DNA of 64,000 bases from Thermoanaerobaculales bacterium (GTDB lineage Bacteria > Acidobacteriota > Thermoanaerobaculia > Thermoanaerobaculales > Sulfomarinibacteraceae). The stretch lies in NCBI GenBank assembly GCA_035358815.1, contig DAOPQC010000001.1, forward strand, positions 481,309 through 545,308. Reading direction: 5' to 3'. Positions within the stretch are counted from its first letter, which is position 1. Each line of letters begins with the position of its first letter. Made by a program: the position numbers and the translations under genes. This document shows, piece after piece, positions 5,506 through 62,810 of the stretch. The notes under the pieces are model-generated. The model saw only the letters and a list, made by a program, of their open reading frames with translations, was not told the DNA's origin and searched no databases.

Positions 5506-6264
5506 CTAGACCGGGTTCGGCAGGTCGACGAACTCGACCTCCAGCCCGTGATGCTGCTCGAGCCAGCGGCCAAGGGCCAGCACGCCGAAGCGCTCGGTGG
5601 CGTAGTGGCCGGCTGCGATGTAGTGCACACCGTCCTCGGCGGCCTGGTGGAGCACCCACTCGGTCGGCTCTCCGGTGATGAAGGCGTCGAGGCCGGAGGT
5701 GACCGCCTCCCGATACGCGCGCTGCGCCGCGCCGGTGACGATGCCGACGGACGACACCAGCCGGCGGTCGCCTTCGAAGACCTGGGGCTCGCGGCCGCAC
5801 GCGCCGGCGACCGCCACGAACAGCTCCTCCGCCTCGACCGGCTCGGCGAACACACCGCACACGCCCACCGAGACGCCGCTGAGCTCGCCGAACGGCTCGA
5901 GCTCGACCAGGCCGAGCCGGTTGGCGAGCTGCGCCGCATTGCCGAGCTCGGGGTGGCGGTCGAGGGGCAGGTGGTAGGCGATCAGCGACATCCGATGCTC
6001 GATCAGCAGGCGCAGCCGCTCGCGCAGCGATCCGACGATCCGCGGTGCCTCGGGGCCATTCCACAGGACCCCGTGGTGAACCAGGACCGCGTCGGCGTCG
6101 CGGTCGACGGCGCGGGTGAAGAGGGCCCGCGACGCCGACACACCGGTGATCAGGCGGCCGACGTCCGGCCGCCCCTCGACCTGGAGGCCATTCGGGCAGG
6201 AGTCGTTCACGGCCTCGACGTCGAGGACCTCGTCGAGCTCGGCGACCAGCTGGAGCAGATTCAT
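5506..6264 (-). CDS. Nif3-like dinuclear metal centre protein (GTP cyclohydrolase I type 2 homologue)
   Basis: MNLLQLVAELDEVLDVEAVNDSCPNGLQVEG...LVHHGVLW...AAGHYATERFG. Start at ATG 6262-6264. Confidence 0.8.
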   Translation of the reverse strand: MNLLQLVAELDEVLDVEAVNDSCPNGLQVEGRPDVGRLITGVSASRALFTRAVDRDADAVLVHHGVLWNGPEAPRIVGSLRERLRLLIEHRMSLIAYHLPLDRHPELGNAAQLANRLGLVELEPFGELSGVSVGVCGVFAEPVEAEELFVAVAGACGREPQVFEGDRRLVSSVGIVTGAAQRAYREAVTSGLDAFITGEPTEWVLHQAAEDGVHYIAAGHYATERFGVLALGRWLEQHHGLEVEFVDLPNPV

Positions 6265-7079: not shown

Positions 7080-9175
7080 TGCGGCTCGCGGCCGGCGCGG
7101 TCGGCGCGCTGCTCGCTCTGACAGGCTGCGCCACCGCGCCGTCGCCGGCCCCGCCGCCGACCACGCCGTCGCCCGCGCCGACCCGTCCGTCGGCGGTGGC
7201 GGCGCCGCCGCAGCTGCCGACGCCACCGGCGCCCGCGTTCAAGCCCGACGCCCACACCGATCCGCCGTTGATCCGGGTCCTCATCGCCAGGACGCGCGAG
7301 GGGGTCGAGCTGGCCCAGCCCGGCCGCGCCTACCGACTGCGCCTGGCGGAGGACCGCGAGAGCTGGCTGTTCGGCCCGCTGCGCCTGGCTGCGGTGCCGG
7401 GCGGCCGGTCGTGGCAGGTCGGTGCCTTCCGCGGCGCCGCGGCCGCCGACGCCGCGGCCCGCCGGATCGAGGCCGCGCTGGGAGGAGACGTCACGGGCAG
7501 CGTGACCGAAGCGCCGGACGGGCTGCTGCGGGTGCGAGCGCGGTGGCGGGGTGCCGAGCCGGCCGACCCGGCGGCGGTGCTCGCCGGCGCCGGCTTCCCG
7601 GGCGCGTTCGCTGTGACCGCGCCCGGCCTGCTCCGCGTCGAGGGATCGAACGGGGTGATCGACGAGATCGCCGGCGAGGTCGTCGTCGACGCCGAGGACG
7701 GCTGGCCGATCGCGGTTGACGGAGGGCACTACCACGGCCGGCTCCGGGTGCGAGTCGCGACCGACGAGGTTCTGGTCATCAACCAGCTCAACCTGGAGAG
7801 CTACCTGAGGGGCGTGGTGCCGGCAGAGATGGGGCCGGTGCAGTTCCCGCAGCTCGACGCGCTCAAGGCGCAGGCGGTGGCGGCGCGCACCTATGCGATC
7901 GCCCACCTCGGCGATGCCGAGGCCGAGGGCTACGACCTCTGTGCGACCCCGGCCTGCCAGGTGTACGCCGGCGCCGACGCTCAGCACCCGCTTTCCGACC
8001 GGGCGGTGGACGAGACCGCCGGCCTGATCGCCGTCTTCGGGGGCGAGCCGATCGACGCGATGTACACCTCGACCTGCGGTGGCCACACCGAGGATGCGGC
8101 GCTGCTGTTCGAGGGCCGCGCCCAGCCGTACCTGCGGGGCGTGCCCTGCGCCTGGGACCGGCCGCTCGAGCTCCTCGGCAGCGGCGAGCCGCAGCGGTTC
8201 CACGGCGAGTCCGAGTTCCGCGCCCACCTCGCGTCCCGGGCACTCGGGCTTCCCTCCGAGGCCGAGCCGCAGCAGGTGGTGGCGCGAGTGGCCGCGGCGT
8301 GCGGAGGCCGGATGGTGGCCGGCGGACGGCAGGCGGGTCCGGACGAGCTCGCCGCTGCCCTGATCGCGGCCGGCGGGCTGGACGGCGCGACGGCGCTGGT
8401 CGACGGTCAAGGCGCCGCGGCGTTGGCCGAGCTCGCGGACCTCTACGACATCCCGCTCGAGGTCCCGGAGGCGGACGTCCGCCGGCACGGCTGGCAGCTG
8501 CGGGCGGCGCTGGCGGTGCTCGAGCTGCGGGGCGTGGTGCGGCGCGACGCCGGCGAGGCGGTGCCGCATCCGGCCGGCGTCGCCATCTTCCCCCGCAACG
8601 CGCCCGGCTCCGAGCCCTTGCCGCAGCCGCTCCCGCTCTACCGCCGGTGGACGCCGGTGTGGAGCAGCGAGGCGGCGCTCACCGTCCTGCCGGGGACTGC
8701 CCTCGAGCGCTACCGGCTGGGCGATCGGCTGCTCGCCGTGGTCGCCGTGCAGTCGGGCGGCGGCGGCCTCGCCGACCGGCGCTCGGCGTGGCGCAGCTGG
8801 TACCGCGACCGGACCTGGGAGGAGGTCGCCCGCGGCCTCGGAGTGCCCGACCTGGAGCGCCTCGAGATCACCAGCCGCGGCCCGTCCGGGCGGGTCGTCG
8901 GCCTGAAGGCTGTCGGCCGCTCGGGTGCCGAGAAGGCGTTCGAGGGGTTCCCGATCCGGCGCGCCCTCGACCTTCCCGAGAACCTGTTCAGCTTCCACGT
9001 GACGACGGCGCCCGACGGCACGAAGACGGTGCGCTTCCTGGGCCGCGCCTGGGGCCACGGTGTCGGGCTCTGCCAGAACGGCGCCTTCGGGCTCGCCCGC
9101 TCGGGCATGACGTTCGAGGAGATCCTCAAGCACTACTACACGGGGATCGAGCTCGTGCGATGGGAAGGGAAGTAG
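7076..9175 (+). CDS. SpoIID/LytB-domain lipoprotein
   Basis: Lipobox LALTGCA. SpoIID motifs AQAVAARTYA, CATPACQVY, YTSTCGGHTE and GHGVGLCQNGA. Its ATGA overlaps the upstream gene. Confidence 0.8.
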   Translation: MMRLAAGAVGALLALTGCATAPSPAPPPTTPSPAPTRPSAVAAPPQLPTPPAPAFKPDAHTDPPLIRVLIARTREGVELAQPGRAYRLRLAEDRESWLFGPLRLAAVPGGRSWQVGAFRGAAAADAAARRIEAALGGDVTGSVTEAPDGLLRVRARWRGAEPADPAAVLAGAGFPGAFAVTAPGLLRVEGSNGVIDEIAGEVVVDAEDGWPIAVDGGHYHGRLRVRVATDEVLVINQLNLESYLRGVVPAEMGPVQFPQLDALKAQAVAARTYAIAHLGDAEAEGYDLCATPACQVYAGADAQHPLSDRAVDETAGLIAVFGGEPIDAMYTSTCGGHTEDAALLFEGRAQPYLRGVPCAWDRPLELLGSGEPQRFHGESEFRAHLASRALGLPSEAEPQQVVARVAAACGGRMVAGGRQAGPDELAAALIAAGGLDGATALVDGQGAAALAELADLYDIPLEVPEADVRRHGWQLRAALAVLELRGVVRRDAGEAVPHPAGVAIFPRNAPGSEPLPQPLPLYRRWTPVWSSEAALTVLPGTALERYRLGDRLLAVVAVQSGGGGLADRRSAWRSWYRDRTWEEVARGLGVPDLERLEITSRGPSGRVVGLKAVGRSGAEKAFEGFPIRRALDLPENLFSFHVTTAPDGTKTVRFLGRAWGHGVGLCQNGAFGLARSGMTFEEILKHYYTGIELVRWEGK

Positions 9176-9199
9176 GGGAGAGGGGTCAGGGGCAAGGGG
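9175..9199 (+). repeat. 7-bp periodic G-tract array (GGGGnnn)x4, a canonical G-quadruplex motif, starting in the stop codon
   Basis: taGGGGagaGGGGtcaGGGGcaaGGGG. The first G is the last base of the SpoIID TAG (9173-9175). Confidence 0.9.
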
Positions 9200-9217
9200 A
9201 AAGGCAGCTCCTGTCCG

Positions 9218-9365
9218 CCTCCGTGCGCGTCTCCGTGCCCGCTCGTTCGCTCGGTCCTCGAAAGCGCTTCGCGCCGATTCTCCTGAGGCGCTCCCCGAGG
9301 TTGGGGTCGGGGCTTTGGGGTGGTTCGCGCTCCCGTTCCCGTTCCCGTTCCCGAACGCCTCCCGG
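9218..9365 (+). repeat. composite intergenic repeat: CCGTNN hexamers, 68-nt conserved core, G-tracts, (CCCGTT)3
   Basis: CCGCCTCCGTGCGCGTCTCCGTGCCC..., core at 9233-9300, ggttGGGGtcGGGGctttGGGGtgg, and ctCCCGTTCCCGTTCCCGTTCCCGaacg. The core matches 62518-62585 in inverted orientation (63 of 68 nt). Confidence 0.85.
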
Positions 9366-9496
9366 TTGTCCGTGAGGCTGGCTGCGCGGAGGTGGTGTCG
9401 ATCCGCGGGAAAGCCGTCTGCGCCGCTCGTGTTGTCCTTGAGGGGCCGCGCCGGCCCCCCTACAATGCGGGGTGGCAGGGTTGCGAGGAGGTGTCC

Positions 9497-10651
9497 GTGG
9501 ACTTCGAGCTGACTCAGGACCAGTTGGCCATCCGCGACATGGTGAGGGACCTCGCCCGCCGCGAGATCGCGCCGCACGCCGGCGCCTGGGACGAGCGCCA
9601 GGAGTTTCCCCGCGCGCTGTTCGACAAGCTCGGCGAGCTTGGCCTGCTCGGGGTCCTGATCCCGGAGCAGTACGGCGGCGCCGGCCTGGCGTACATCGAG
9701 TACGTGGTCATCCTGGAGGAGATCGGCGCCGCCGACGGTGGGGTCGGGCTCGGGGTCGCCGCCCACAACTCGCTGTGCACGAACCACCTCTACCTCTACG
9801 GCTCGGAGGAGCTGCGGCGCGAGTTCCTGCCGAAGCTCGCCAGCGGCGAGTGGATCGGCGCCTGGGCGCTCACCGAGCCCGGCGCCGGGTCTGACGCCGG
9901 CGGCACCACCACGACCGCTGCCCGCGACGGCGGAGAGTGGGTGCTCAACGGGTCCAAGAACTTCATCACCCATGCCACGTCGGGCCAGGCGGCCGTGGTC
10001 ATGGCGCGCACCTCGAAGGAGAAGGGCCACCACGGAATCTCGGCCTTCTTCGTGCCCTTCGATCGTCCGGGGGTGTCGCCCGGGAAGAAGGAGAACAAGC
10101 TCGGGATGCGCTGCTCGGACACCTCCTCGCTGGTGCTCGAGGACTGCCGGGTCCCCGCGGGTCACCTGCTCGGCAAGGAGGGTGACGGCTTCGTCCAGGC
10201 CATGCAGGTGCTGGACGGCGGCCGGATCTCGATCGCGGCGCTGGCCCTCGGCATCGCCCGCGGCGCGCTCGATGCGACGCTGCAGTACGCGCCGACGCGC
10301 GAGCAGTTCGGCAAGCCGATCGCCTCGTTCCAGGCGGTCCGCCACAAGCTCGCCGACATGGCCACCGAGGTCGAGGCGGCGCGGCTGCTCACCTTCCAGG
10401 CGGCGGCCCTCAAGAACGCGGGCAGGCCCACCACCAAGCAGTCGTCGATGGCCAAGGTCTACGCATCGGAGGTTGCGGTGCGGGTCGCCGAGGAGGCGAT
10501 CCAGATTCACGGCGGCTACGGCTACACCAAGGACTACCCGGTGGAGCGCGCGTGGCGGGACTCCAAGCTGTGCACGATCGGCGAGGGCACGTCCGAGATC
10601 CAGCGGCTCGTGATCGCGCGCGAGCTGCTCGACGTCGAGGGTGGCCGTTGA
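9497..10651 (+). CDS. acyl-CoA dehydrogenase (short/medium-chain type)
   Basis: 384 aa from GTG 9497, preceded by GAGGAGG. Motifs: [14 protein letters not shown], and YEGTSEIQ-like [14 protein letters not shown] at the C-terminus. Confidence 0.85.
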
Positions 10652-10653
10652 CG

Positions 10654-11070
10654 ATGGAGCCGGAGCGACCGTCGCACCTCGACCACATCGGGATCGCGGT
10701 GCGCTCGATCGCAGAGGCGCTGCGCTTCTGGGAGGCTGCCGGGCTCCGCCTCGAGGGCGCGGAGGAGGTCGCGGCGCAGGCCGTCCGCGTGGGCTTCCTG
10801 CCGCTCGGCGAAACCCGTCTCGAGCTGCTCGAGCCCACCGGCCCGGAGTCGCCGATCGCCAGGCACCTCGAACGGCGTGGGCCGGGGCTGCACCACATCT
10901 GCGTCAGCGTGCCCGACATCCGCGCCGCGATGGCGCAGCTGGCCGCCGCGGGCTTCGAGCTGCTGTCGGCCGAGCCGCAGCCCGGGGCGCGCGGCTGCCT
11001 GGTGTGCTTCGTCCACCCGAAATCCGCTGGGGGCGTCCTGGTCGAGCTGTCCCAGCCCGGGATGCGCTAG
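10654..11070 (+). CDS. mce: methylmalonyl-CoA epimerase (VOC/glyoxalase fold)
   Basis: LDHIGIAVRSIAEA...LELLEPTGPESPIARHLERRGPGLHHICVSVPDI...FVHPKSAGGVLVELSQ. ATG at 10654. Confidence 0.8.
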   Translation: MEPERPSHLDHIGIAVRSIAEALRFWEAAGLRLEGAEEVAAQAVRVGFLPLGETRLELLEPTGPESPIARHLERRGPGLHHICVSVPDIRAAMAQLAAAGFELLSAEPQPGARGCLVCFVHPKSAGGVLVELSQPGMR

Positions 11071-11079
11071 GCTCGGGCC

Positions 11080-11400
11080 ATGGAAGCCATCGACGCCGGG
11101 GCGCTGGTGATCGTCCACTGCCGGGAGCCGAAGGAGAAGCTGTGGGGCGTGCTGGTGCGCCTCGACCTCATCGGGCTCGTGGTGCGCGGCCTCGACCTGG
11201 CTGCGGTCGAGGACTGGCTGCGCCAGGAGCGCGCCGGCGAGGCGGCGCTCATCGGGCCGTCGACGTCCTTCATCCCGACCCATCGCGTCGTCCGCGTCGA
11301 CCTCGACGAGAGCAGCGCCGTGGTCGAGAGCTTCGGCGATCGGTTCGCCGAGGCGTGTGGCCGGGACGCGCGCGAGGCGCTGATGGGTGGGCGGCGTTGA
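11080..11400 (+). CDS. hypothetical protein (106 aa)
   Basis: Its composition looks like real coding sequence. Its stop overlaps the likely TTG start of the next gene (TTGA at 11397-11400). I recognise no motif. Confidence 0.45.
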   Translation: MEAIDAGALVIVHCREPKEKLWGVLVRLDLIGLVVRGLDLAAVEDWLRQERAGEAALIGPSTSFIPTHRVVRVDLDESSAVVESFGDRFAEACGRDAREALMGGRR

Positions 11401-12347
11401 CCGGGGCCTGCTCGCGGCACGCCCGGCCGCCGTCCGCGGCCGCGTGCGGACGCGCGGCGGCGGCTTTGTCCATCGTGGCTGCCCTCACGGTGCTGTCGCT
11501 GCCTGCGGTAACCGTTCGCGCCCAGTACGAGGGGGAGGTCACCGTCAACGCGGTGGTCGCCCCGGTGACCGTCCGCGACGATGCGGGGCGGATCGTGAGC
11601 GAGGTGGCGCGCGATCGCTTCCACCTCTACGTCGACGGTATGGAGGTCCCGATCCGCGACTTCGCGCGGGAGAGCGATCTGCCGCTCAGCCTGGGTTTCA
11701 TCCTCGACAGCTCGGGCTCGATGGCAGGCCACAAGCTGGCCGCGTGCCAGGACCTGATCGGCGCCTTCCTCAAGGAGCGGCGGCAGGACGACCAGCTCGC
11801 CCTGTGGACCTTTGGCGACGACCGGGTGCTCGAGCGCTTCCCATTCGGCATGGGCTGGTACCTGTTGCCGCGGGTCCTCGAGACCATCCGGCCGTGGAGC
11901 ACCACAGCCCTGTACGACATGATCCAGCGCGTCCCCGACGTCATGGAGCGGGCAACCCATCCGCGGCGCGCCGCCATCCTGCTGACCGACGGCGTCGACA
12001 ACGCGTCGCGCTTGTCGGCGCAGGACGCGGGGCTGATCGCGGAGGGGCTCGACACCCCGATCTTCGTCCTTGGCGTCGAGCCGCCATCGACTCCGGCCAC
12101 CGGCGAGACGTCCTACGAGGAGGTCCTCGTCCTGATCGCCGAGTCCTCCGGCGGCCGCTACCAGAGGATCCCGGCGACCGAGCAGATGCCGGCGGCGGTG
12201 CGGGCGCTGATCGCCGAGCTGTCGTCGCGGTTCATCATCACCTTCGTCACCTCGGGGGTGGGAATCAGCAAGTACCGCACGCTCGAGGTGACGGTGGACG
12301 GCTACCGGGCGACCAGCCGCAAGGGATACACGGGCACTCTGCCGTGA
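11397..12347 (+). CDS. secreted von Willebrand factor A domain protein (acidobacterial VWFA-related type)
   Basis: Signal-like AAALSIVAALTVLSLPAVTVRAQ. MIDAS motif LSLGFILDSSGSMAG plus AAILLTDGVDN. The start is uncertain (TTG 11397 chosen). The track ORF from 10641 is an upstream shadow extension. Confidence 0.65.
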   Translation: MTGACSRHARPPSAAACGRAAAALSIVAALTVLSLPAVTVRAQYEGEVTVNAVVAPVTVRDDAGRIVSEVARDRFHLYVDGMEVPIRDFARESDLPLSLGFILDSSGSMAGHKLAACQDLIGAFLKERRQDDQLALWTFGDDRVLERFPFGMGWYLLPRVLETIRPWSTTALYDMIQRVPDVMERATHPRRAAILLTDGVDNASRLSAQDAGLIAEGLDTPIFVLGVEPPSTPATGETSYEEVLVLIAESSGGRYQRIPATEQMPAAVRALIAELSSRFIITFVTSGVGISKYRTLEVTVDGYRATSRKGYTGTLP

Positions 12348-12487
12348 CCGTGCGACCGGCTCGCCAGGTGCGCCCCGTCACGCAGCGGCCGCCGGCGGGG
12401 AGGCCGGGGGCTCGCCGGCAGCGGAATCTGTACTAGAATCGTCTCGATGGTACACAAGTTGGACGATCGCCCTCGCGGAGGTACGTG

Positions 12488-13012
12488 ATGCGGAAGTCCG
12501 TGCTGGTGTTGGTTGGCTGCCTCGTGCTGTGCGCGGCCCCGGCGTGGGCCGGGGGAGCGTTCTCCTTGTTCGGGACCTACGGTGAGGTGACCGAGGACAA
12601 CCGGTCATACGGCGTCGGCGCCAGGCTCAGTCTCGGCGGCCAGTGGGTGATGGTCGACCTGACCGGCACCTGGGTCCCGGGCCACAGCGCCGGCGACTTC
12701 GACGAAGACATGCAGGTCGTCCCCTTCGACCTCGGTCTGCGCCTCGTGCTCGCCCCCGCGAGCGAGCTGCGGCCATACGTCGGAGCAGGCGTCACCTACA
12801 TGGCGATCAACCTCTCGGAGAGGGACGTCGACGATCCGACCGGCTTCTATGCCCTGGCCGGCTTCAACGTGAAGGCCTGGGACCACGCGGGCTTCTTCAT
12901 GGAGGCCGTCTACCGCGAGGCAGATGCCACGGTCGTCGACTACGACGGGTCGGAGTTCGACGAGGACTTCGGCGGCATCGCCGGCGCGGTCGGGTTCTAC
13001 TGGACCTTCTAG
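12488..13012 (+). CDS. small outer-membrane beta-barrel protein
   Basis: Signal peptide MRKSVLVLVGCLVLCAAPAWA, an alternating hydrophobic pattern, and C-terminal GFYWTF ending in Phe. GGAGG lies 6 nt upstream of ATG 12488. Confidence 0.65.
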   Translation: MRKSVLVLVGCLVLCAAPAWAGGAFSLFGTYGEVTEDNRSYGVGARLSLGGQWVMVDLTGTWVPGHSAGDFDEDMQVVPFDLGLRLVLAPASELRPYVGAGVTYMAINLSERDVDDPTGFYALAGFNVKAWDHAGFFMEAVYREADATVVDYDGSEFDEDFGGIAGAVGFYWTF

Positions 13013-13013
13013 C

Positions 13014-13514
13014 TCAGCCCAGCGCCGCCAGCGCCGCGTCGTAGTCCGGCTCGGTCGTGATCTCGTCCACCAGCTGGGTGTAGATGACCCGGTCGCGCTC
13101 GTCGAGAACGACGACCGCGCGGGCGCACAGGCCGGCCAGCGGGCCGTCGACGAGCAGGACTCCGTAGTCCTCGGCGAACCTCTTGCCGCGCATCATCGAC
13201 AGCGGCACGACGCCGGTCAGGCCTTCGGTTGAGCAGAACCGGCCCTGCGCGAAGGGCAGGTCGGCGGAGATGACCAGCACGACCGTGTTGTCGAGCGAGC
13301 CGGCGGCCTGGTTGAAGCGGCGCGTCGAGGCCGCGCAGACCGCGGTGTCGAGGCTGGGCACGATGTTCAGGATCTTGCGCTTGCCCGCGTGATCGGCGAG
13401 GGTCACGTCGGCCAGGTTGCCGCCGACCAGGGTGAAACGCGGCGCCGCCGTTCCGACGGCCGGGAGCTCACCGTTGGTGTGAACGGGGTTGCCTTTGAGA
13501 TGGGTTGTGGCCAT
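13014..13514 (-). CDS. tpx: thiol peroxidase (atypical 2-Cys peroxiredoxin)
   Basis: [27 protein letters not shown]...[14 protein letters not shown].... Confidence 0.85.
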
Positions 13515-13876
13515 GGTGGGTTCCTTTCATCTCGTCCTCGGTCCCATATGATAGACGAACGCAGCCTGCGAGTAGCGCGCATCCCCGGCGCTCGCTTCAC
13601 CCCCGCCCGCTCCCGCTTCCGGATGGCTGCCTACAGCCTATCGACCGCTCGAGTCCGCACGCCCCTGCCAGCGAAGCCCGGCCCGGCGACCCCCCTCAAC
13701 CGGATCGAACCGCGGAGGGCGCCGAGATCGCAGAGGCCGTCCCAGAGAACGTCTTCTGTCCGTGCTCCGCGCTGTCTGCGCCCTCTGCGGTTCAGATGAC
13801 GTGAGGCCGAATCGGTGGAGGTGTCCGGCCGCGGATCGAGTGGAGAGGCGTGGGCTCGCTCCGGTCAACGCTGCCG

Positions 13877-14036
13877 GCGAGCGGGCGGATACGGGCGCGG
13901 CAGCGGGTACGGAAACGGGGCGCGTTCGACCGGGAACGGGAACGGGGACGATTCGGGCGCGGAAGCGGAAGCGGGTGCGGAAACGGGGCGCGCTCGATCG
14001 GGAACGGGAACGGGAACGGGGACGGGAACGGGAGCG
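13877..14036. repeat. long G-rich hexamer array (NNACGG/GGGAAC) containing a 68-bp tandem duplication
   Basis: GGGT[A/G]CGGAAACGGGGCGCG[T/C]TCGA[C/T]CGGGAACGGGAACGG occurs at 13905 and again at 13973. The complementary short C-rich arm CCCGCCCGCTCCCGCTTCCGG lies at about 13603-13622. Confidence 0.85.
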
Positions 14037-14046
14037 AGCCGGCCCC

Positions 14047-16768: not shown

Positions 16769-16985
16769 CACCCGTTCCCGTTCCCCTGCCCCTTCCCGTT
16801 CCCGAAACGGCGTCCCTGCTCTCCATTCTCCTGCTGGGAACGGAGGCGGCGACGACGACAGGCAAGGGGTTGGCCTGGGGAAAGTGCCAAAGTGTCGGCC
16901 CTGGCACGGGAATGGGAACGGAGGCGGCGACGACGACAGGCAGGGGGTTGGGCTGGGGAAAGTGCCAAAGTGTCGGCCCTGGCAC
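16769..16985 (-). repeat. hexamer arms plus a near-identical 78-bp tandem duplication
   Basis: CCCGTTCCCGTTCCCCTGCCCCTTCCCGTTCCCGAAACGG at 16769-16806. The units 16836-16913 and 16914-16985 differ at 2 positions over the shared 72 nt. Each unit holds the GTGCCA-n12-TGGCAC hairpin. Confidence 0.9.
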
Positions 16986-17133: not shown

Positions 17134-17168
17134 TATCTATCCCCCAGATCCTATCCCCCAGATCCTGG
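17134..17168 (-). repeat. heptad array (minus strand: GGATCTG GGGGATA GGATCTG GGGGATA) 14 nt after the LVIVD gene stop
   Basis: The plus strand reads tatctatcccccagatcctatcccccagatcctgg. Confidence 0.85.
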
Positions 17169-17181
17169 ACGGGCGGAGGCC

Positions 17182-20100
17182 TTACTGCGGCAGCACGGTG
17201 GTCGGGTCACTCGTCGTGTTGTCCAACACGGAGCCGTAGCCGAAGATGGACGCGCCCTCGGTGTTGGTCCAAATGTCCACGTAGCCGGCCTCAATCGGCG
17301 AGTGGTTCCGGAACACCCGGGTGATCTGGTTGTTGGAGTAGGGCGCCAGGTCCATGGTCTTGGTTTCGAGCGACTCGCCCTCGGAGTTGAAGAGCTCGAT
17401 GAACACCCGCACCGTCTGGCCGCTGCCGTTCTGGCAGCCGACGTTGGAGCGGACGTCGTCGTTCTCGTTCATGAAGATGATCCGCTTCTTCACCCCCGAG
17501 GCGATCATCCGGTCCTCCGGGATGCCCGGCAGCTCCTGTCCGAAAGTCCCAGCCACCTTGGCCCACGGCAGGTTGTAGGTCCGGCTCATGGCCAAGAGCT
17601 CCGGTCCGCTCGCCTCGATGGCCAGCGCACCGGCCTGGTCCGGCTCGAGTCCGAACACCTCGTCGAGCACGTTGGCATAGCGCACGCCGGCTCCGGGCGC
17701 GAGCGAGAACGTGTCACTGCGGACCGGATCGCCGTTGTCGGCGCCGCGGGGCAGCCACAGCAGCTCGTAGGTGAGGTCGGTGGAACCGACGTTGTTGAGG
17801 TCCACATCCGTCTCGAAGAACGCGCCCTCCAGCCCGGCGGCGAGCGCTGCGGCGGGGATGAAGGTCGTGTCATCCGACGGCACCTGGGGCAGGATGGTGG
17901 TCGGGTCGGACGTGATGTTGTCGAGCATCGAACCGTAGCAGTAGTAGAGCGCGACGTCGCTGCCGGCCCAGACGTCGACGTAGCCGTTGACCGGCTGGTA
18001 GTCCCGGAAGACCCGGTTGATCTGGTTGTTGGACCAGGGTCCCAGGTCCATGGTCTTGGTTTCGAGAGGCGAGCCCTCGGCGTCGAAGATTCCGATGTTG
18101 ATGGTCACCGGCTCGCTTGAGCCGTTGACGCAGCCGACGTTGGCCCGGAAGTCAGGGTCCTCGCTCAGGAAGATGATGCGCTGCGGCTCGGTGCCGGCGA
18201 TCATCTCGGTCGCCCGGATGGCTGGCAGGCCCTGGCCGAAGGTGCCGGCGGTCTTGCCGGCAGGGATGTTGTAGGTGCGGCTCATGCCGATGACCGACTC
18301 GGTGTTCGCCACCAGCCTCAGGGCGCCGAGTGAGTCGGCGCCGAGACCGAATAGCTCAGCGAGTACATTCTCGTAGCGCTGGCTCTGCCCGGGAGCGAGC
18401 GCAATTACATCGGAGCTGATGGGATCGGAGTTGTCCTCGCCGCGCGGCAGCCACTGGAAGGTCAGCTGCGCTGCCTCTGTCCCTGTGTTGTTGACCTCGA
18501 CGTCGGTTGAGAAGAAGGCCCCCTGGGCGCCGGCCGCCACCGCCGCCGCCGGGATGAACGACTCGCGGTCCGGAGAAGGGCCGCCGGCGCACTCGGAGAA
18601 GACGTAAACGCCGGTGTCGCTGCCCGCGGCGTAGACCCGTCCCGCTGACACCACCACCGACTCCACCGGCGCAGGCGTTTCGAAGAACCCGACCTCGACC
18701 GGAGCCGAGGGAGTTCTGACGTCGACCACTCGGAGGCCGCTGGGAGCGTAGTCTGCGAGGTAGGCGTAGCCCCCCGCGACCGCCACCGCCCGGGAGATTT
18801 GCCCCGCCGCCCCGAGGGACCCCACCGGAACCGGGGCCGAAGGGGTGCCCACGTCAACGACCCACAGGCCGCCCGCGTCGTCTGCGACGTACGCATGACG
18901 GCCGGCAAGCGCGACATCCCAGGCGAAGCCCGGCGTGTCGACGGAGCCTACCTCGACGGGCGCGGCCGGCGTGCTGACGTCGATCACGCGAAGACCCGCG
19001 TCCCCGCCTGCGACGTAGGCGTGGGTCCCCAGAATGACGACACCCTGGGCAGTGCCAGGCGTGCCGATGGAGCCGACCTCGACGGGCGCGGAAGGCGCGC
19101 TCACGTCGATCACGCGGAGGCCTGCGTCCCCGTCGGCGACGTAGGCGTGGGTGCCCGAGACCGCCACGCCCGAGGCGGACCCTGGTGTGTCGACGAAGCC
19201 GACCTCGACCGGCGCGGAGGGATCGAGAACCGAGATCACGCGAAGGCCCCCCTCGCCGTCGGCGGCGTAGGCGAAGCCGCCGCTCGCCGCGACGTCGGCG
19301 ACGGCTGCCGGCGTGCCGACGAAGCCCACCTCGGCCGGCGCCGCGGGGTCCGAGAGGTCGAACGACCGTAGCCCGGCGGGCGAGAATCCGACGAACGCGT
19401 TGCCACCGGATACGTCGATGCTTGCGGCACTCCCGGGAACGTCCACGAAGCTCATCTCGGTCGGTGCCGGTGGCAGGCTCACGTCGATCACCCGGAGACC
19501 CCCACCCCAGTCAGCGATGTACGCCAGGTCATCCGCGACCGCGACACCGTAGGCATATCCCGGCGTGTCCGCGGCCCCGGCCTCCACCGGCGACGACGGA
19601 ACGCTCACGTCGACCACCCGGAGTCCCTCGGTGTCGTCGGCGACATAGGCAAAGCCGCCGGCAACGGCGACACCGTAGGCAAGTCCCGGTGTATCGATGA
19701 AACCGACCTCAACCGGCTCGTCCACTGTGGCCGCATCGATCACGCGGAGGCCCGCAGCCTCGGCAGCAACGAAGACGTAGCTGTTCGCGACTGCGACACC
19801 GTAGGCGACTCCCGGCGTGTCGAGATGCCCGACCTGGTGGGACGCCGCCGGAACCCCGACGTCGATCACGTGCAGACCCGTGCCAACGTCGGCGACGTAG
19901 GCGTAGCCTCCCGCGAGAGCGACGTCGATCGCGAGGTTCGGGGTGTCGACGGATGCCACCTCGACGGGCGTGGTCGGTGAGGCCACGTCGATCACGCGAA
20001 GGCCCGCACTGCCGTCAGCCAGGTAGGCGAAATTGCCCGCGACCGCGACGTCGATGGCCAAGCCCTGAGTCGCGATGAAGCCCACCTGGACCGGCGCCGC

Positions 20101-20436
20101 CGGCACCCTCGCGTCGATCACTCGAAGCCCATCACCTGCTGCAACGTAGACGTAACCGCCAGACGCCGAAATGCCGAGCACGAGCCACGGCAGCTCGACG
20201 TCGCCCACGACGCGTGGCGTCGACGGGTCGGAGACGTCGGCGATTTGCAGCGTGCTGCCGCTGCCGAGGTAGGCAAGGTCTGCGGATGCGGCGACCGCCG
20301 CCGTCGGGCCGTAGGGCCAGCGACCGATCAGCTCCGGGCAGCCCTGGGCTGCAACCGGCGCCACCGCGACGGCGAAGCCTGCCGCTAGCGCGATGATCAA
20401 GGACTCTGAACCCAAACGGCTTGGGGACCGCATCAT
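17182..20436 (-). CDS. secreted LVIVD-repeat beta-propeller protein with two tandem C-terminal modules of about 226 aa
   Basis: The ATGATG start (20431-20436) follows GGAGG. Signal peptide MMRSPSRLGSESLIIALAAGFAVAVAPVAAQG. There are many GLRVIDVS.P..P.EVG..DTPG.A.GVAV.G..AYVAD repeats. The track ORF starts further upstream at 20868. Confidence 0.75.
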   Translation of the reverse strand: MMRSPSRLGSESLIIALAAGFAVAVAPVAAQGCPELIGRWPYGPTAAVAASADLAYLGSGSTLQIADVSDPSTPRVVGDVELPWLVLGISASGGYVYVAAGDGLRVIDARVPAAPVQVGFIATQGLAIDVAVAGNFAYLADGSAGLRVIDVASPTTPVEVASVDTPNLAIDVALAGGYAYVADVGTGLHVIDVGVPAASHQVGHLDTPGVAYGVAVANSYVFVAAEAAGLRVIDAATVDEPVEVGFIDTPGLAYGVAVAGGFAYVADDTEGLRVVDVSVPSSPVEAGAADTPGYAYGVAVADDLAYIADWGGGLRVIDVSLPPAPTEMSFVDVPGSAASIDVSGGNAFVGFSPAGLRSFDLSDPAAPAEVGFVGTPAAVADVAASGGFAYAADGEGGLRVISVLDPSAPVEVGFVDTPGSASGVAVSGTHAYVADGDAGLRVIDVSAPSAPVEVGSIGTPGTAQGVVILGTHAYVAGGDAGLRVIDVSTPAAPVEVGSVDTPGFAWDVALAGRHAYVADDAGGLWVVDVGTPSAPVPVGSLGAAGQISRAVAVAGGYAYLADYAPSGLRVVDVRTPSAPVEVGFFETPAPVESVVVSAGRVYAAGSDTGVYVFSECAGGPSPDRESFIPAAAVAAGAQGAFFSTDVEVNNTGTEAAQLTFQWLPRGEDNSDPISSDVIALAPGQSQRYENVLAELFGLGADSLGALRLVANTESVIGMSRTYNIPAGKTAGTFGQGLPAIRATEMIAGTEPQRIIFLSEDPDFRANVGCVNGSSEPVTINIGIFDAEGSPLETKTMDLGPWSNNQINRVFRDYQPVNGYVDVWAGSDVALYYCYGSMLDNITSDPTTILPQVPSDDTTFIPAAALAAGLEGAFFETDVDLNNVGSTDLTYELLWLPRGADNGDPVRSDTFSLAPGAGVRYANVLDEVFGLEPDQAGALAIEASGPELLAMSRTYNLPWAKVAGTFGQELPGIPEDRMIASGVKKRIIFMNENDDVRSNVGCQNGSGQTVRVFIELFNSEGESLETKTMDLAPYSNNQITRVFRNHSPIEAGYVDIWTNTEGASIFGYGSVLDNTTSDPTTVLPQ

Positions 20437-20671
20437 TCGCCTCCGTTCCAGCCCCGGGCGTGGACCGACCAGCGCATTACGCTGCCGTGAGGTGGGCAGC
20501 ATAGCGGGCCCTGGCGTCGCGGACGAGGGCCTGGTCCGTGGACTGTCAACGACGGTGAAACAGCCGTGCGGGTGCGTCGCTTCCGGATCGTCTCGTGGCG
20601 GAGGATGGCGGACCGGGCCGGATCTGGGAGTGCCGCAGTGGGGGTCGATGGCGGTCCGGGCCCGAGCCCGG

Positions 20672-20768
20672 CGACGGGCAGGGAAACAGGAACGGGGGCG
20701 CGACGGGCGCGGAAGCGGGGGACGCATCCGGGAACGGGGACGGGAACGGGAGCGGGCATGGGCGGACG
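20672..20768 (+). repeat. G-rich hexamer array in a divergent promoter region
   Basis: cgacgggcagggaaacaggaacgggggcgcgacgggcgcggaagcgggggacgcatccGGGAACGGGGACGGGAACGGGAGCGGGCATGGG. Confidence 0.8.
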
Positions 20769-20855
20769 GCTTGGCAAAGCGGGCGGTCGCGAGTACCATG
20801 CGTTGGCCTTGGTGCAACAATTCACAAGCAGCACCGGGGCGCCACGGAGGCAGCC

Positions 20856-21836
20856 ATGGCAGGGTCACTGTTGGGTCGGCACTTTCTCAAGCTGCTCGAC
20901 TTCACCCCGGACGAGATCCGCGGCCTGCTCGACCTCGCGGCGCGCCTCAAGGCCGACCGCCGAGTCGGCCGTCGCGGCGCCCGCCTGGCCGGCAAGAGCG
21001 TCGCCCTGATCTTCGAAAAGCCGTCGACCCGCACCCGCTGTGCCTTCACGGTGGCCTGCATCGACGAGGGGGCCCACCCCGAGTACCTCGGCAAGGGCGA
21101 CATCCAGCTCGGGAAAAAGGAGACGGTTGCCGACACGGCGCGGGTGCTGGGGCGGATGTTCGACGGCATCCAGTTCCGCGGTTTCGCCCACCGGACGGTG
21201 GAGCAGTTGGCGGCGCATGCCGGAGTGCCGGTGTGGAACGGGCTGACCGACGCCTGGCACCCGACCCAGATCCTGGCCGATGTGCTGACCGTGCAGGAGG
21301 AGTTCGGCAGGCTCGAGGGGATCGCGCTCGCCTATGCCGGCGATGGCCGCAACAACGTCGCCCGCTCGACCCTGGTCGGCGGCGCCAAGCTCGGCATGGA
21401 CGTCCGGGTGGTGGCGCCAAAGGCCCTCTTCCCCGAGCCCGACCTGGTGGCGACGGTGCGGGCGATCGCCGGAGAGACCGGCGGCAAGGTCACGGTGACC
21501 GAGTCCGTGGAGGAGGGGGTGCGCGGCGCGCACGCGATCTACACCGACGTCTGGGCCTCGATGGGCGAGGAGGACAAGATCGCGGAGCGGATTGCGCTGC
21601 TCAAGCCTTACAAGGTGACGCGCCGGATGATGGAGCTCACCGGACGGCCGGAGGCGATCTTCCTGCACTGCCTGCCCGCGTTCCACAACCTCGAGACCGA
21701 CATGGCGCGGCAGCACCCGGAGATCTGCGAGGTCGAGGACGAGGTCTTCGAGGGCCTGCAGTCGCGAGTGTTCGAGGAGGCCGAGAACCGGCTCCACACC
21801 ATCAAGGCAGTCATGGTCGCGACCCTCGCGGGCTGA
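20856..21836 (+). CDS. argF: ornithine carbamoyltransferase
   Basis: Motifs: [29 protein letters not shown], and C-terminal [15 protein letters not shown]. The ATG at 20856 follows GGAGG. Confidence 0.9.
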
Positions 21837-23280: not shown

Positions 23281-23440
23281 CCCCGTTCCCGCTCCCGTGC
23301 CCGTTCCCGTACCCGGATGACGGTCCGGAATCGAAGGGGCCCACTCGAGCGAGGACTCCTCGATCGATTCTGACGGTCTCGTGCTGTTCCGGTCGATTCA
23401 CGAAGTCGTTCGGGGACGGGAACGGGGACGGGAACGGAGG
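23281..23440 (+). repeat. inverted hexamer arms with a loop of about 95 nt
   Basis: CCCCGTTCCCGCTCCCGTGCCCGTTCCCGTACCCGG ... CGGGGACGGGAACGGGGACGGGAACGGAGG. Confidence 0.85.
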
Positions 23441-25956: not shown

Positions 25957-26058
25957 CTCCGTTCCCGCTCCCGTACCCGTTCCCGTTCCCGAGTGACGGC
26001 TCGGGGCGCGCACCGGCCGTTTCGGAGACGGAGCCGGGCACGGAGACGGGCAGGGAAG
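25957..26058. repeat. inverted hexamer arms between convergent genes
   Basis: CCGTTCCCGCTCCCGTACCCGTTCCCGTTCCCG - loop of about 28 nt - CGGAGACGGAGCCGGGCACGGAGACGGGCAGGG. Confidence 0.85.
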
Positions 26059-28200: not shown

Positions 28201-28366
28201 GATCCCGGATCTATCCGTGCCCGTGCCCGTCTCCGTGCCCGTCTCCGTTTCCCCTCTGATCGTCCCGAGACCGGATGGCACGGTCGGGCACGGAGACGAC
28301 GGCCGGGGCGGACGGCGTCGGCGCGAGCGCCCAGATCGTGACCCCTGACCCCCAGCCCCGACCCCA
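28201..28366 (-). repeat. composite element in minus orientation: G-tract head, C-hexamers, loop, G-hexamers
   Basis: The minus strand reads GGGGtcGGGGctGGGGGtcaGGGG (28341-28366) ... ccgtcgtctccgtgcccgaccgtgcc ... ggaaacggagacgggcacggagacgggcacgggcacgg. Confidence 0.85.
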
Positions 28367-28378
28367 TGAAACGACGAA

Positions 28379-30329: not shown

Positions 30330-30403
30330 ATTCGGTCCGCCGCGGGAAAAAAGCAACCCTTCCGGGCCGGGTGGCGGCAAGGCGTCGAGTGTCAGGACCT
30401 GGC

Positions 30404-30770
30404 GCTTCGCTTCGGCTCCGCTTCCGCGCCCGCTTCCGCTTCCGCGCCCGATCGTGGTGCCCGCCACTCGGAGCAGGCCCTACTCGGCCAAACGGAGAAA
30501 GTGACTCTGCTCCAGTACTTTCGAAGAAAAGCTGGAGGCTGGAACGAAGGCGGAAGCGGGCGGGAGGTCCACTGCCGCAGTGACTCACTGCGAAGGACCC
30601 TGGGCGGTTGGGAACGGGGACGGGAACGGGAACGGGAACGCGGGGACCCTGCTTGCGGCTCGGAAGGAAGAACGAAGACGGAAGGGGAAGGGGGCGGGTG
30701 GCCCACTGCCCCACTGCCCCATCGCCCCAACGCCCAGGACGGTCGGGAACGGGAACGGGAACGGGAACGT
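30404..30770 (-). repeat. complex multi-array repeat region
   Basis: Plus strand: C-hexamers 30404-30450, G-hexamers 30541-30566, palindrome cGCAGTGAcTCACTGCg 30576-30592, (GGGAAC)n 30610-30645, a purine tract, 8-bp periodic CCCACTGCCCCACTGCCCCATCGCCCC 30701-30735, and (GGGAAC)4 30744-30770. Confidence 0.85.
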
Positions 30771-30800
30771 GGAAACACTAAACCCACCCCGAAGGGTGGG
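30771..30800 (-). terminator. rho-independent terminator of pnp
   Basis: The minus strand reads CCCACCC-ttcg-GGGTGGG followed by TTTAGTGTTTCC. Confidence 0.7.
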
Positions 30801-35854: not shown

Positions 35855-36015
35855 CGGGCGCGGAAGCGGAAGCGATTCTGGCACTCGGCTTCGTGCCCCG
35901 CCCGATGAGTTCCGCGGTCACGGGTTGCCACATCAGCGGGCGCGGAAGCGGAAGCGGGCGCGGAAGCGGGATTGGGGGCGTTTGCCTGTCACCTGTCACG
36001 GGTCACCTATCACAC
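35855..36015 (-). repeat. heptad array plus two direct hexamer arrays, inside the operon
   Basis: The minus strand after the DUF503 TGA reads GGTGTGA TAGGTGA CCCGTGA CAGGTGA CAGGC. The plus-strand block GGGCGCGGAAGCGGAAGCG occurs at about 35855 and again at about 35937. Confidence 0.85.
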
Positions 36016-36431: not shown

Positions 36432-36465
36432 TCCCTAGACCCCAGATCCTAGATCCCAGATCCTA
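36432..36465 (-). repeat. heptad array beginning with the infB stop codon
   Basis: The minus strand reads TAGGATCTGGGATCTAGGATCTGGGGTCTAGGGAG, with three TAG triplets in three different frames within 31 nt. Confidence 0.9.
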
Positions 36466-41286: not shown

Positions 41287-42405
41287 ATGTCCTGGATCGC
41301 GCGGGAGATCGCGGCGCGCGGCGGCGAGGTCAGCTTTCGCGACTACATGGAGCTGGCGCTCTACCACCCCCGGCACGGCTACTACAGCGCGGCCACGCCG
41401 CGCTACGGTCGCGGCGGGGACTTCCTGACGGCGCCGACGGCGTCGCCGTGGTACGCGGTCGTGCTGGCGGGCCTCGTCGAGCGTCTCGCCGCGCGCGCCG
41501 GCCCGGTCTGCTTTCTCGATGTCGCCTCGGGCGACGGCGCGCTCCTCGTCGACCTGCTGTCCGCGATGGCGGACGGTGGCGCCGCCGCGATCCGGGAGGC
41601 CTGCTCGGTCGAGCGCTCGTCACCGATGCGAGCCGCCCAGCTCGCCCGGCTCGGCGGCGCGGCCAAGGTGTCGATCAGGGTGGTGGCGTCGCTCGAGGAG
41701 GTGGAGCGCACGGCAGGCCCGGTCGTCGTGCACGCGTGCGAGCTCTACGACGCGCTGCCGGTGCATCGGGTCGTGATGAGGCCGGGCGGCCTCAGCGAGC
41801 TGCGAGTGGCGGCGGTCGGCGACGCTTGCCGCTGGAGCGAGTCGCCGGCCGGGGGCGAGCTCGATCGGTACTTCGCCAGCCACGGCGTGAGGCTCGAGCC
41901 CGGGCAGATCGCGGAGGCGCGCCTCGACGCGGAGCGGCTGCACTCGAGCCTGCTCGAGCTCGCCGGGGGCGACGGGCTGGCGGTGATCACCGACTACGGC
42001 TACGAAGCGCGCCGCCTCTACGACCCCCGCGGCCGCCGCGGCGGCTCGCTGGCCGTCCAGCGCGCCCACCGGGTGTCTCGCGATCCGTTCCTGGAGCCCG
42101 GCGAGCGCGACCTCAGCGCCCACGTCAACTGGGACGATCTCCGGCGCGCCGCCGACGCCGCCGGCTGGCGGGAGATCGCGCTGACCGGCCTCGCGCCCTT
42201 CCTCATCCGCGCCGGGCTCGCCGGGCAGATGGAGCGGCTGGGGGTGGGCGAGGCGGCCGGGCTCGACGCTCGGACGGTGGCCGAGCGGCAGGAGATCAAG
42301 CGCCTGCTCGACCCCGACGGCATGGGCTCGGACCTCAAGGTTCTGGTGCAGGGGAAGGGGCCGCTGGCTGACGCCGCAGCAGAGGATCTAGGATCTGGGG
42401 TCTAG
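41287..42405 (+). CDS. class I SAM-dependent methyltransferase, MidA/NDUFAF7 (DUF185) family
   Basis: VSFRDYMELALYHPRHGYY....GRGGDFLTAPTASPWY. Confidence 0.75.
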   Translation: MSWIAREIAARGGEVSFRDYMELALYHPRHGYYSAATPRYGRGGDFLTAPTASPWYAVVLAGLVERLAARAGPVCFLDVASGDGALLVDLLSAMADGGAAAIREACSVERSSPMRAAQLARLGGAAKVSIRVVASLEEVERTAGPVVVHACELYDALPVHRVVMRPGGLSELRVAAVGDACRWSESPAGGELDRYFASHGVRLEPGQIAEARLDAERLHSSLLELAGGDGLAVITDYGYEARRLYDPRGRRGGSLAVQRAHRVSRDPFLEPGERDLSAHVNWDDLRRAADAAGWREIALTGLAPFLIRAGLAGQMERLGVGEAAGLDARTVAERQEIKRLLDPDGMGSDLKVLVQGKGPLADAAAEDLGSGV

Positions 42406-42610
42406 GGGATAGGGCCCGTCTCCCCGTTCCCGTTCCCGAAACGCCGCTCAAGGTCGGGACGGCCCGTCGGACACTGAGGATCTAGGATCTGGGATCTAGG
42501 GGATAGGGCCCGCCTCCCCGTTCCCGTTCCCGTTCCCGTTCCCGAAATGACCCTCGACGCTGGTGCCCCCCGTCGGGAACGGGAGCGGGCACGGGTACGG
42601 GAACGGGCTG
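42384..42610 (+). repeat. two tandem composite elements (heptad head + C-hexamers, twice), the second with a G-hexamer arm
   Basis: GGATCTAGGATCTGGGGTCTAGGGGATAGGGCCCG at 42384-42418 overlaps the last 7 codons and the stop of the methyltransferase. A second head lies at 42477-42511. (CCCGTT)4 is followed by a loop and GGGAACGGGAGCGGGCACGGGTACGGGAACGGG. Confidence 0.9.
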
Positions 42611-44829: not shown

Positions 44830-44977
44830 GGGGGTAGGTGTTGGGGGAAGGGGGTCGGTTCCCGTTCCCGTTCCCGTTCCCGCTTCCGTGCCCGCTTCCG
44901 TTCCCGTTCCCGTTCCCGGAACGCTGCTCGCGTCTGGCACGACGTCCATCGGAGATAGAAACGGGCACGGAGACGAA
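44830..44977 (+). repeat. composite element: three G5 tracts, a 60-bp (CCCGTT/CCGCTT) array, loop, short G arm
   Basis: GGGGGtaggtgttGGGGGaaGGGGGtcgg, then ttcccgttcccgttcccgttcccgcttccgtgcccgcttccgttcccgttcccgttcccgg ... aacgggcacggagacg. Confidence 0.85.
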
Positions 44978-62272: not shown

Positions 62273-62312
62273 GGCTGAGGATCTGGGGGCTGGGATCTGG
62301 GGGATAGGGCCC
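62273..62312 (+). repeat. heptad array immediately after the peptidase stop
   Basis: TGAggcTGAGGATCTGGGGGCTGGGATCTGGGGGATAGGGCCCC. Confidence 0.9.
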
Positions 62313-62351
62313 CGCCCAGCCCGTTGCGACGTGACGTGCAGAAGCGATCGG

Positions 62352-62380
62352 GCGGGCCCTTCGGGGCCCGCTCATTCTTC
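62352..62380 (+). terminator. rho-independent terminator candidate
   Basis: GCGGGCCC-ttcg-GGGCCCGC followed by tcattcttc. Confidence 0.6.
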
Positions 62381-62448
62381 CCGCATCCGCATCTTCGCCC
62401 GGGAGGCGAGGCGAGTGCGCGGCAAGTGCGTCTGGCGGGCGTGCCATC

Positions 62449-62509
62449 TTTGGCGATTTCGGGAGTGGCGGTCCTGCTGAAGAAGCGCTCGAGAACCGAA
62501 ATCGCCAAA
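62449..62509. repeat. 14-bp perfect inverted repeat with a 33-nt loop
   Basis: TTTGGCGATTTCGG (62449-62462) and CCGAAATCGCCAAA (62496-62509). Confidence 0.9.
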
Positions 62510-62517
62510 TGTGGCTC

Positions 62518-62712
62518 CCTCGGGGAGCGCCTCCGGAGAATTGGCGCGAAGCGCTCTTGAGGACGGAGCGAACGAGCGGGCACGGGCACGGATGCGGGCA
62601 CGGGAACGGGAACGGGTACGGGAACGAAGGCGGGCGCTGCAGGGGAAGTCGAGGCGGACGAGGGGAAGGGCCTTGACCCCCTGTCCCCCAACCCCTACTC
62701 CCTATCCCCTGG
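62518..62712 (-). repeat. composite element in minus orientation: 68-nt core, G-hexamer array, C-rich heptads
   Basis: Core 62518-62585 is the inverted match of 9233-9300. GGGCACGGGCACGGATGCGGGCACGGGAACGGGAACGGGTACGGGAACG. gaCCCCCtgtCCCCCaaCCCCtactCCCtatCCCCtgg. Confidence 0.9.
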
Positions 62713-62724
62713 GTGGGAGGGGGC

Positions 62725-62733
62725 TGCTATACT
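62725..62733 (+). promoter_or_regulatory. extended -10 element TGcTATACT upstream of infC
   Basis: Read directly from the sequence. I see no good -35. Confidence 0.35.
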
Positions 62734-62810
62734 CTGCGGTGACCATGGGCATCCTGCGAGGAATGGTCCGAGCCGGCCCATGAGCAACCTGTGACCAAAG
62801 GAGGTTGGAC

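Follow-up and report, generated by a model that had tools for sequence, protein, structure and literature searches.

The 68-nt sequence that occurs twice, in inverted orientation, in the 64,000-nt stretch of DNA analysed here (hereafter, the window; G+C content of about 70%) is probably part of a new family of modular, non-coding, interspersed intergenic repeats of the Holophagae, in which it forms the 3' module. The element itself is about 190 nt long, is non-coding and consists of a 5' leader, a 21-bp hairpin and the 68-nt module, in this order. On our best reading, it is closest in kind to ERIC, BOX, BIME and MITE elements: as in the ERIC/BOX/BIME-like repeats, a descriptive class and not a homologous family, the element is multi-copy, strictly intergenic, non-coding and hairpin-forming, occurs in either orientation, and is modular, with long and short variants. 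Two features stand out as unusual: its constant nesting in polar hexamer arrays, and the replacement of loops at fixed sites.

The reverse complement of positions 9233-9300 (copy A) aligns without gaps to positions 62518-62585 (copy B), with 63 of 68 positions identical and 5 mismatches; gapless realignment has thus confirmed the match reported in an earlier note on this DNA, and the match extends to 73 nt (66/73 identical). Shuffles of the window give an expectation of 0.00 for the 68-mer at up to 3 mismatches, and 0/100 of them contained a match. The self-complementary segments that had been pointed out in the core (CCTCG/CGAGG, GCGCC/GGCGC and AAGCGCTT) are all present, and the surroundings are arranged as had been described: both copies are located beside hexamer arrays (9323-9353 and 62577-62626), and, in the orientation of the element, hexamers are found 3' of the core in both copies, followed by a C-tract heptad block, which at copy A corresponds to G-tracts on the forward strand (9174-9204). 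Each copy is intergenic, copy A being flanked by a SpoIID-domain gene (stop at 9175) and an acyl-CoA dehydrogenase gene (start at 9497), and copy B by a peptidase C25 gene (stop at 62272) and infC. Between the two copies, the flanking sequences can be aligned only through simple or low-complexity repeats, and thus copies A and B are not a segmental duplication; at least 125 further copies have been found, on either strand. The ideas of an oriented element that is present in both orientations, and of copying or mobility as opposed to segmental duplication, have therefore held, while the 68-mer has turned out not to be the whole unit, as the conservation of copy B continues for about 120 nt upstream of position 62518. 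Weaker versions of the core, thought to occur in other loops, have not been recovered: a covariance search without filters gave no match at 13712-13735, 16815-16830, 23356-23372 or 28250-28272, and CGATTCTCCTGAGG with up to 3 mismatches gave 5 matches against 8.3 expected by chance. These weak copies were also ruled out by blastn-short.

The coordinates of the element and of its parts in the window are listed in Table 1. The leader has the sequence CCCGGGAGGCGAGGCGAGTACGAGGAGAGGGCGTCCTGCGGGCGT, and it is followed by the hairpin, whose 21-nt arms, GCCATCTTTGGCGATTTCGGG and CCCGAAATCGCCAAAGGTGGC, surround a variable apical part; a two-base junction separates the hairpin from the 68-mer. Over its whole length, copy B can be aligned with 9 copies from genomes and 78 from metagenomes.

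Table 1. Positions of the 190-nt element, its modules and its flanking arrays in the window.
Feature	Position	Strand	Remarks
Full-length element, subfamily A, short form	62396..62584	+	Covariance model R1: 185.5 bits, E 2.9e-40, model positions 1-188
5' leader (CCCGGGAGGCGAGGCGAG...GCGGGCGT)	62398..62442	+	Sequence-conserved in alignments; kept in subfamily B
Central hairpin	62443..62515	+	Arms 62443-62463 / 62495-62515; variable apical part
3' module, copy B core	62518..62585	+	Most sequence-conserved part, mean column entropy 0.43 bits
5' flanking CCG-period-6 hexamers (CCCGCATCCGCATCTTCGCCCGG)	62380..62402	+	Polarity as in 79/96 copies
3' flanking CGG-period-6 array (CGGGCA/CGGGAA)	62575..62635	+	Tandem Repeats Finder: period 6, 8.3 copies; polarity 91/96
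3' module, copy A core	9233..9300	-	63/68 vs 62518-62585; part of R1 match 9234-9368, 51.1 bits
Replacement segment	9301..9355	-	C-tract heptads 9301-9322 and (GGGAAC)n hexamers 9323-9353, in place of leader and hairpin
5'-terminus remnant (CCGGGAGGCG)	9356..9365	-	About 10 nt; R1 alignment spans model 1-188, ends at 9368
3' flanking CGG-type hexamers (CGGAGACGCGCACGGAGGCGGACAGG on - strand)	9205..9232	-	

Among the matches listed, 129 copies have been extracted from metagenome stretches. In about 98 of them, the 68-nt module directly follows the hairpin, while in about 17, a 99-nt, hairpin-rich insert separates the two, placed precisely at the junction; of the 14 others, nearly all are truncated by the end of a contig. 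The insert is conserved, is never found outside this context, and is bounded by a direct repeat, AACCT or ACCT. No copy has a gene between its modules, the apparent gaps being contig ends, and an autonomous version with a gene in this position, which we considered, has for the same reason been rejected. In one insert-bearing copy (contig L042, 1574-1900), a different hairpin (GGTGCCAGGTGCCGTGA...TCACGGTACCTGGCAC) takes the place of the 68-nt module after CACCTCGGG, from which it follows that the tail of the element can be swapped. The core also contains the heptamer GCGAAGC, located at 62546-62552 on the forward strand and at 9266-9272 on the reverse strand, a sequence known as an unusually stable DNA mini-hairpin; its three loop bases vary among copies (GAA, GAT, GCA, GGA, GAG, GGT), and the flanking GCGC stems are fixed.

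The history of copy A is seen in contig L099, which is orthologous to positions 9384-13531 of the window at 83-87% identity, and which carries at the place of copy A a full-length copy of the insert-bearing form, with the full 5' module. The replaced state of copy A is also found in several assemblies of the window's own species. These sequence comparisons show copy A (9234-9368) to be the internally replaced remnant of a full copy.

The range of the element has been explored with two exact search words and a covariance model. A 21-mer from the core (GGAGAATNGGCGCGAAGCGCT), searched for in 185,579 genomes, one per species, gave 13 stretches, 10 of which are true copies, all located in the metagenome-assembled genomes MFD00032.bin.2.196 and FeB_10 (Holophagae); a scan of metagenomes, for which the search word was an exact 21-mer of the 5' arm, gave at least 117 stretches, many of the copies being orthologs from related strains. 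The covariance model (R1) was built from the nine genome copies. With the filters off, it finds only two element matches in the window, at 62396-62584 (+) and 9234-9368 (-), and in 606 kb of fetched loci it finds 115 matches, some without the exact search words, with up to 3 copies per 8 kb, tandem pairs included. A weak match in the window, at 5624-5716 (-) (21.3 bits, E of about 0.002 on a rough calibration), lies in a coding-like region and is probably a chance, G+C-rich hairpin. No copies were found in viral, plasmid or phage collections; the element has so far been found only in Holophagae (Acidobacteriota), i.e. bacteria of soil and sludge. A search of the literature on Holophagae repeats and on the hexamer motif returned nothing relevant, and the element is apparently undescribed so far.

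The comparison of the copies has revealed that the hairpin and the core are conserved differently. RNAalifold predicts a 21-bp stem in the central hairpin. In a second group of copies, which we refer to as subfamily B (L034, L092, L084 and L107), the leader and the 3' module are as in subfamily A, and the stem is wholly different; as the two arms of this stem, GCCACTGGTGACACTTTCGGGG and CCCGAAAGTGTCAGCGGTGGC, still pair with each other, the central hairpin seems to be selected as a structure. In the alignment fitted to the model, the structure beats 500/500 shuffles on every measure, and 25 pairs of the hairpin and the apical helix have changes on both sides, a number that 0/500 shuffles reach; the compensatory changes are found in the main stem and in the apical helix, and they are concentrated in helices 5 and 6. 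G-U cells exceed A-C cells by about 3:1 in helices 5, 6 and 9 of this model-fitted alignment, although the counted events are not independent and the excess is for the most part shared by descent within subfamilies. In addition, both subfamilies keep a T-G wobble close to the base of the stem; together, these two observations hint at a functional forward strand. The conservation of the 5' arm is inflated, because the metagenome sample required an exact 21-mer in that arm.

The 68-nt core, on the other hand, shows no sign of a conserved fold: the 73-mer is no more stable than shuffles on either strand (z of -0.2 to +0.9), and none of four pairing models (two within the core, as a long hairpin or as the GCGCC/GGCGC hairpin, and two between the core and the leader) has a single compensatory change among 78 distinct copies. 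Since the core is also the least variable part of the element, it is conserved as a sequence. Thus, the small structured RNA that the earlier note had proposed for the 68-mer itself finds no support; the one structure that is supported is the central hairpin, which belongs to the larger element and lies outside the coordinates that had been considered. The same note had named two findings as speaking against its reading, i.e. a lack of compensatory changes and an origin of only two copies by segmental duplication; the former is what we have found in the core, and the latter does not apply.

Comparison of orthologous sites gives some insight into how the element behaves over time. The site of copy B is filled in MFD00032 (L004), while in FeB_10 (L009) it is without the element, and a different small hairpin is located between the same two terminator hairpins. 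Similarly, L066, L064 and L060 have unrelated inter-array loops at sites where L090, L093 and L010 carry the element, and a single orthologous site is occupied by subfamily A in L043 and by subfamily B in L107. From these alignments, it is shown that copies can be absent on occasion, or replaced by another loop or by the other subfamily. Target-site duplications, which the earlier note had suggested looking for around full copies, are not visible in the three to four comparisons between filled and unfilled sites (L004/L009, L090/L066 and L093/L064 among them), where the unfilled sites hold other sequence and the junctions are not clean. Orthologous copies share 86.8% identity, their mostly coding flanks 87.3%, and all pairs of copies 79.5%, which indicates that copies are mostly inherited in place and evolve no faster than coding DNA. 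This slow divergence of orthologs, together with the covariation of the hairpin, fits a host-selected function as well as it fits a selfish repeat.

A multi-copy family of structured small RNA genes, with the forward strand being transcribed and with the hairpin, the single-stranded leader and the 3' module acting as RNA, is the alternative that survives best, and although we consider it unlikely, it keeps some weight because the hairpin covaries and the divergence is low. Such a family would account for a hairpin that is kept through a complete swap of its stem between subfamilies, for the covariation of the apical helix, for orthologous sites that diverge as little as coding flanks, and for the bias towards the forward strand that the G-U excess and the T-G wobble of both subfamilies suggest; the optional 99-nt, hairpin-rich domain also resembles the expansion segments of structured RNAs. 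The element is, in this respect, similar to the curated RNA families of Rfam 15, where long conserved hairpins with covariation and optional expansion domains occur, but none of these families matches anywhere in the window at gathering score, and a search of 62250-62800 at E values up to 10 gave chance hairpins only, the best of which (E 0.36) is a microRNA model that is placed on a heptad hairpin, off the element. Moreover, no sigma-70-like or intrinsic-terminator-like site is located at copy A or copy B, the only promoter-like site (9438-9466) is that of the downstream gene, and canonical intrinsic terminators are rare in the flanks of the copies, too rare under the strict definition used to be informative. 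Also against an RNA gene are the leader and the 68-nt module, which do not covary in any pairing tested, the fold of the full copy, which beats shuffles only modestly (z of -1.6 for the forward strand and -2.1 for the reverse strand), and the G-U excess itself, given its inheritance within subfamilies and the fitted alignment. The high copy number, the contigs that break inside the element and the sites that are empty or otherwise occupied likewise speak against it.

The intergenic repeat that we favour is found in a characteristic context. Among the 66 copies that have a gene called on both sides, based on crude, GC3-based ORF calls, the flanking genes are convergent in 28 and divergent in 7, while among the co-directional pairs the element points in the direction of the genes in 15 copies and in the opposite direction in 16; the element thus favours the 3' ends of genes, without a preferred orientation. 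On the strand of the element, 43 loci have flanks with a positive GC skew and 44 have flanks with a negative one; the orientation thus also shows no relation to local GC skew, a noisy proxy for replication direction in loci of 3-12 kb. Period-6 CCG units are located upstream of the element, at its 5' side, in 79/96 copies (82%), and period-6 CGG units downstream, at its 3' side, in 91/96 copies (95%), the reverse arrangements being rare. The element takes the place of the loop between a 5' CCCGNN array and a 3' NNCGGG array. Pairs of this kind abound between the genes of these genomes, for the most part close to a gene's 3' end: when up to 1 mismatch is allowed, CGGGNNCGGGNNCGGGNNCGG matches 45 times in the window against 0.42 expected, and 725 kb of related DNA contain about 580 hexamer arrays, with 37 C-then-G pairs that enclose loops other than the 190-nt element. 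A copy-specific complementarity between the two arrays, which L005 had suggested, was rejected, as the arms of the same copy score 10.1 and mismatched partners score 10.4. The ends of the element are not inverted, i.e. it has no terminal inverted repeats of its own, and the arrays are inverted only as a class.

In the window, hexamer arrays are located at 9323-9353, 13886-14037, 16771-16804, 20729-20761, 23282-23437, 25959-26056, 28215-28300, 30403-30774, 35855-35969, 42423-42607, 44858-44976 and 62575-62635, usually in the order C-type (CCCGNN)n and then G-type (NNCGGG)n, a pair that could fold into a long hairpin; as (GGGAAC)4, the G-type strand conforms to the canonical G-quadruplex motif. 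Heptad arrays of the GGGGNNN and GGATCTN types occur directly after stop codons, in the orientation of the transcript (9174-9204, 17137-17166, 28340-28370, 36434-36465, 42383-42406, 42477-42500, 62273-62303 and 62678-62710), with C-rich counterparts further on; positions 62639-62711, for example, fold as a hairpin of G-heptads with C-heptads, and heptad motifs are also seen beside copies in other loci. In the tandem pairs of subfamily B (L034 809-1228 and L092 5205-5630), each copy has its own hexamer arrays, and the two copies are separated by (GGGAAC)n and then (CCCGCT...), which leads into the next copy.

As regards the way in which the element spreads, the likeliest routes are a trans-acting enzyme that would read the leader and the 68-nt tail, carrying or exchanging the element between array pairs, or, alternatively, recombination across the flanking arrays. 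The hairpin, either as RNA or as single-stranded DNA, would be the selected feature, while the leader and the 68-nt module would be conserved because something reads their sequence; a role for the host, e.g. as a 3'-end or terminator-like structure, is conjecture. The search for a parent element or enzyme covered about 0.7 Mb around the copies, and the clustering of 485 flanking ORFs in this DNA gave no recurrent neighbour gene or transposase, but only orthologs and spurious ORFs across the element. A bolder reading, which we put forward tentatively and hold to be unlikely, is that the polar array pairs, present in most intergenic regions of these Holophagae, serve as docking sites for the hairpin element as an exchangeable cargo, which would be moved by an array-guided mechanism (either through recombination between arrays or by means of an enzyme recognising leader and tail), or that the element is an abundant new class of structured RNAs, with tens of genes per genome. 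The docking of a cargo, if true, would mean that a repeat needs neither terminal inverted repeats nor target duplications nor a linked transposase in order to spread.

Among known repeats, the ERIC/IRU sequences of Enterobacteriaceae are intergenic, non-coding, imperfect palindromes of about 100-200 nt, found in either orientation, which exist both as truncated, shorter forms and as longer forms with insertions at fixed internal positions; no transposase or clear target duplication is known for them. The Holophagae element is similar in its intergenic and non-coding nature, its length, its occurrence in either orientation and its long and short variants, but it shares no sequence similarity with ERIC and is hosted by a different clade; in addition, ERIC is one long imperfect palindrome and is not bracketed by polar hexamer arrays, whereas the Holophagae element is an asymmetric succession of leader, hairpin and tail. 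BOX elements of Streptococcus pneumoniae vary in the number of their middle modules, and the BIMEs of E. coli are built of 20-40-nt REP units. Both share with our element a modular or mosaic structure, many copies in the spaces between genes, frequently close to a 3' end, and predicted stable hairpins, but the order of the modules is fixed in the Holophagae element, the 99-nt insert is its sole optional module, and the short repeats that accompany it are tandem arrays of 6 and 7 nt. MITEs (e.g. the Correia elements of Neisseria) are defined by terminal inverted repeats that match a parent insertion sequence and by target-site duplications; they are comparable as non-autonomous, multi-copy intergenic elements of 100-300 nt, with internal-deletion variants and presence/absence polymorphism, but for the Holophagae element we have found no terminal inverted repeats and have seen neither a target-site duplication nor a parent element.

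A closer relation to the REPs, which are 20-40-nt extragenic hairpins that are enriched at the 3' ends of genes and have conserved stem irregularities, would make the element a derivative of a single-strand DNA transposon (REPIN/RAYT, or a PATE of IS200/IS605), whose hairpin would be read by an HUH transposase that is encoded elsewhere. We regard this as quite improbable. The extragenic hairpin, its enrichment at 3' ends and its conserved irregularity, i.e. the T-G wobble (A-C on the other strand) that both subfamilies keep, are indeed shared with the REPs, and no terminal inverted repeats were found and no target-site duplication was visible in the site comparisons above, features that such elements also lack; the putative GCGAAGC mini-hairpin of the core and the copies of one 8-kb locus, which often have the same orientation, would also be in agreement. 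REP elements are described as carrying a GTAG or CGTC tag at the foot of the stem (PMC3733652). This tag is absent from the foot of our stem (GGGCGT|GCCATC...GGTGGC|WM). Furthermore, the hairpin unit of about 73 nt lies within a 190-nt element with an asymmetric leader and tail, unlike the much shorter REPs, no RAYT or other HUH gene is located next to any copy, and the orientation has no strand bias, being related neither to GC skew (43 vs 44) nor to the direction of the genes (15 vs 16).

The chance that the core belongs to a small protein-coding gene, whose dipeptide repeats the hexamer arrays would encode, is very slight. One frame of the reverse strand is free of stops in 68/74 copies, and copy B has an ATG at 62510 from which an open frame continues across the hexamers, but open frames are to be expected at 67% G+C, and most other copies lack this ATG because they have AAGGTGGC in place of AATGTGGC. 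The variability of the element has no codon (3-base) periodicity, and insertions or deletions of 1 and 2 nt are seen among the copies, which leads us to consider the element non-coding. A two-copy segmental duplication, or a chance match in low-complexity intergenic DNA, is of negligible probability: both copies of the window do lie in hexamer- and heptamer-rich regions, where many weak matches arise, but the shuffles, the flanks that align only through simple repeats and the many further copies all speak against it.

The Holophagae, and the Acidobacteriota as a whole, are abundant in soils, sediments and sludge, and their genome biology has been little studied. The element and the hexamer and heptamer arrays make up a large share of what lies between their genes, and metagenome assemblies are seen to break at them; a model of the element is useful for annotation and binning, and the copies can serve as markers for strain typing. 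The stem-swapped subfamilies constitute a clean natural experiment, in which the hairpin is selected and not its sequence, while the sequence-conserved leader and 68-nt tail point to a putative protein or nucleic-acid partner. If this partner were to act through an array-guided exchange or an RNA function, the mechanism would be new to biology; otherwise, the element is one more family of bacterial interspersed repeats.

Several features of the window that are located outside the element were also noted. ARAGORN calls a 92-nt tRNA-Ala(CGC) at 11375-11466, which overlaps ORFs with coding-like GC3; the Rfam scan at gathering score finds no tRNA anywhere in the window, and the call is probably a false positive. 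A second, palindromic family of intergenic repeats, unrelated to the 190-nt element, is located at 13690-13830, an interval that includes 13712-13735; it matches L007 (76% over 126 nt), L016 (in both orientations) and L121. Another intergenic repeat, at 16835-16985, consists of 1.9 copies of a 78-nt unit with 97% identity, each unit ending in CGG-type hexamers. Lastly, 10-12 tandem repeats of 126 nt (42 codons), with 60-78% identity, are found at 18672-20130 inside a 1228-aa ORF (17182-20868, reverse strand), which suggests that this ORF encodes a repeat-domain protein.
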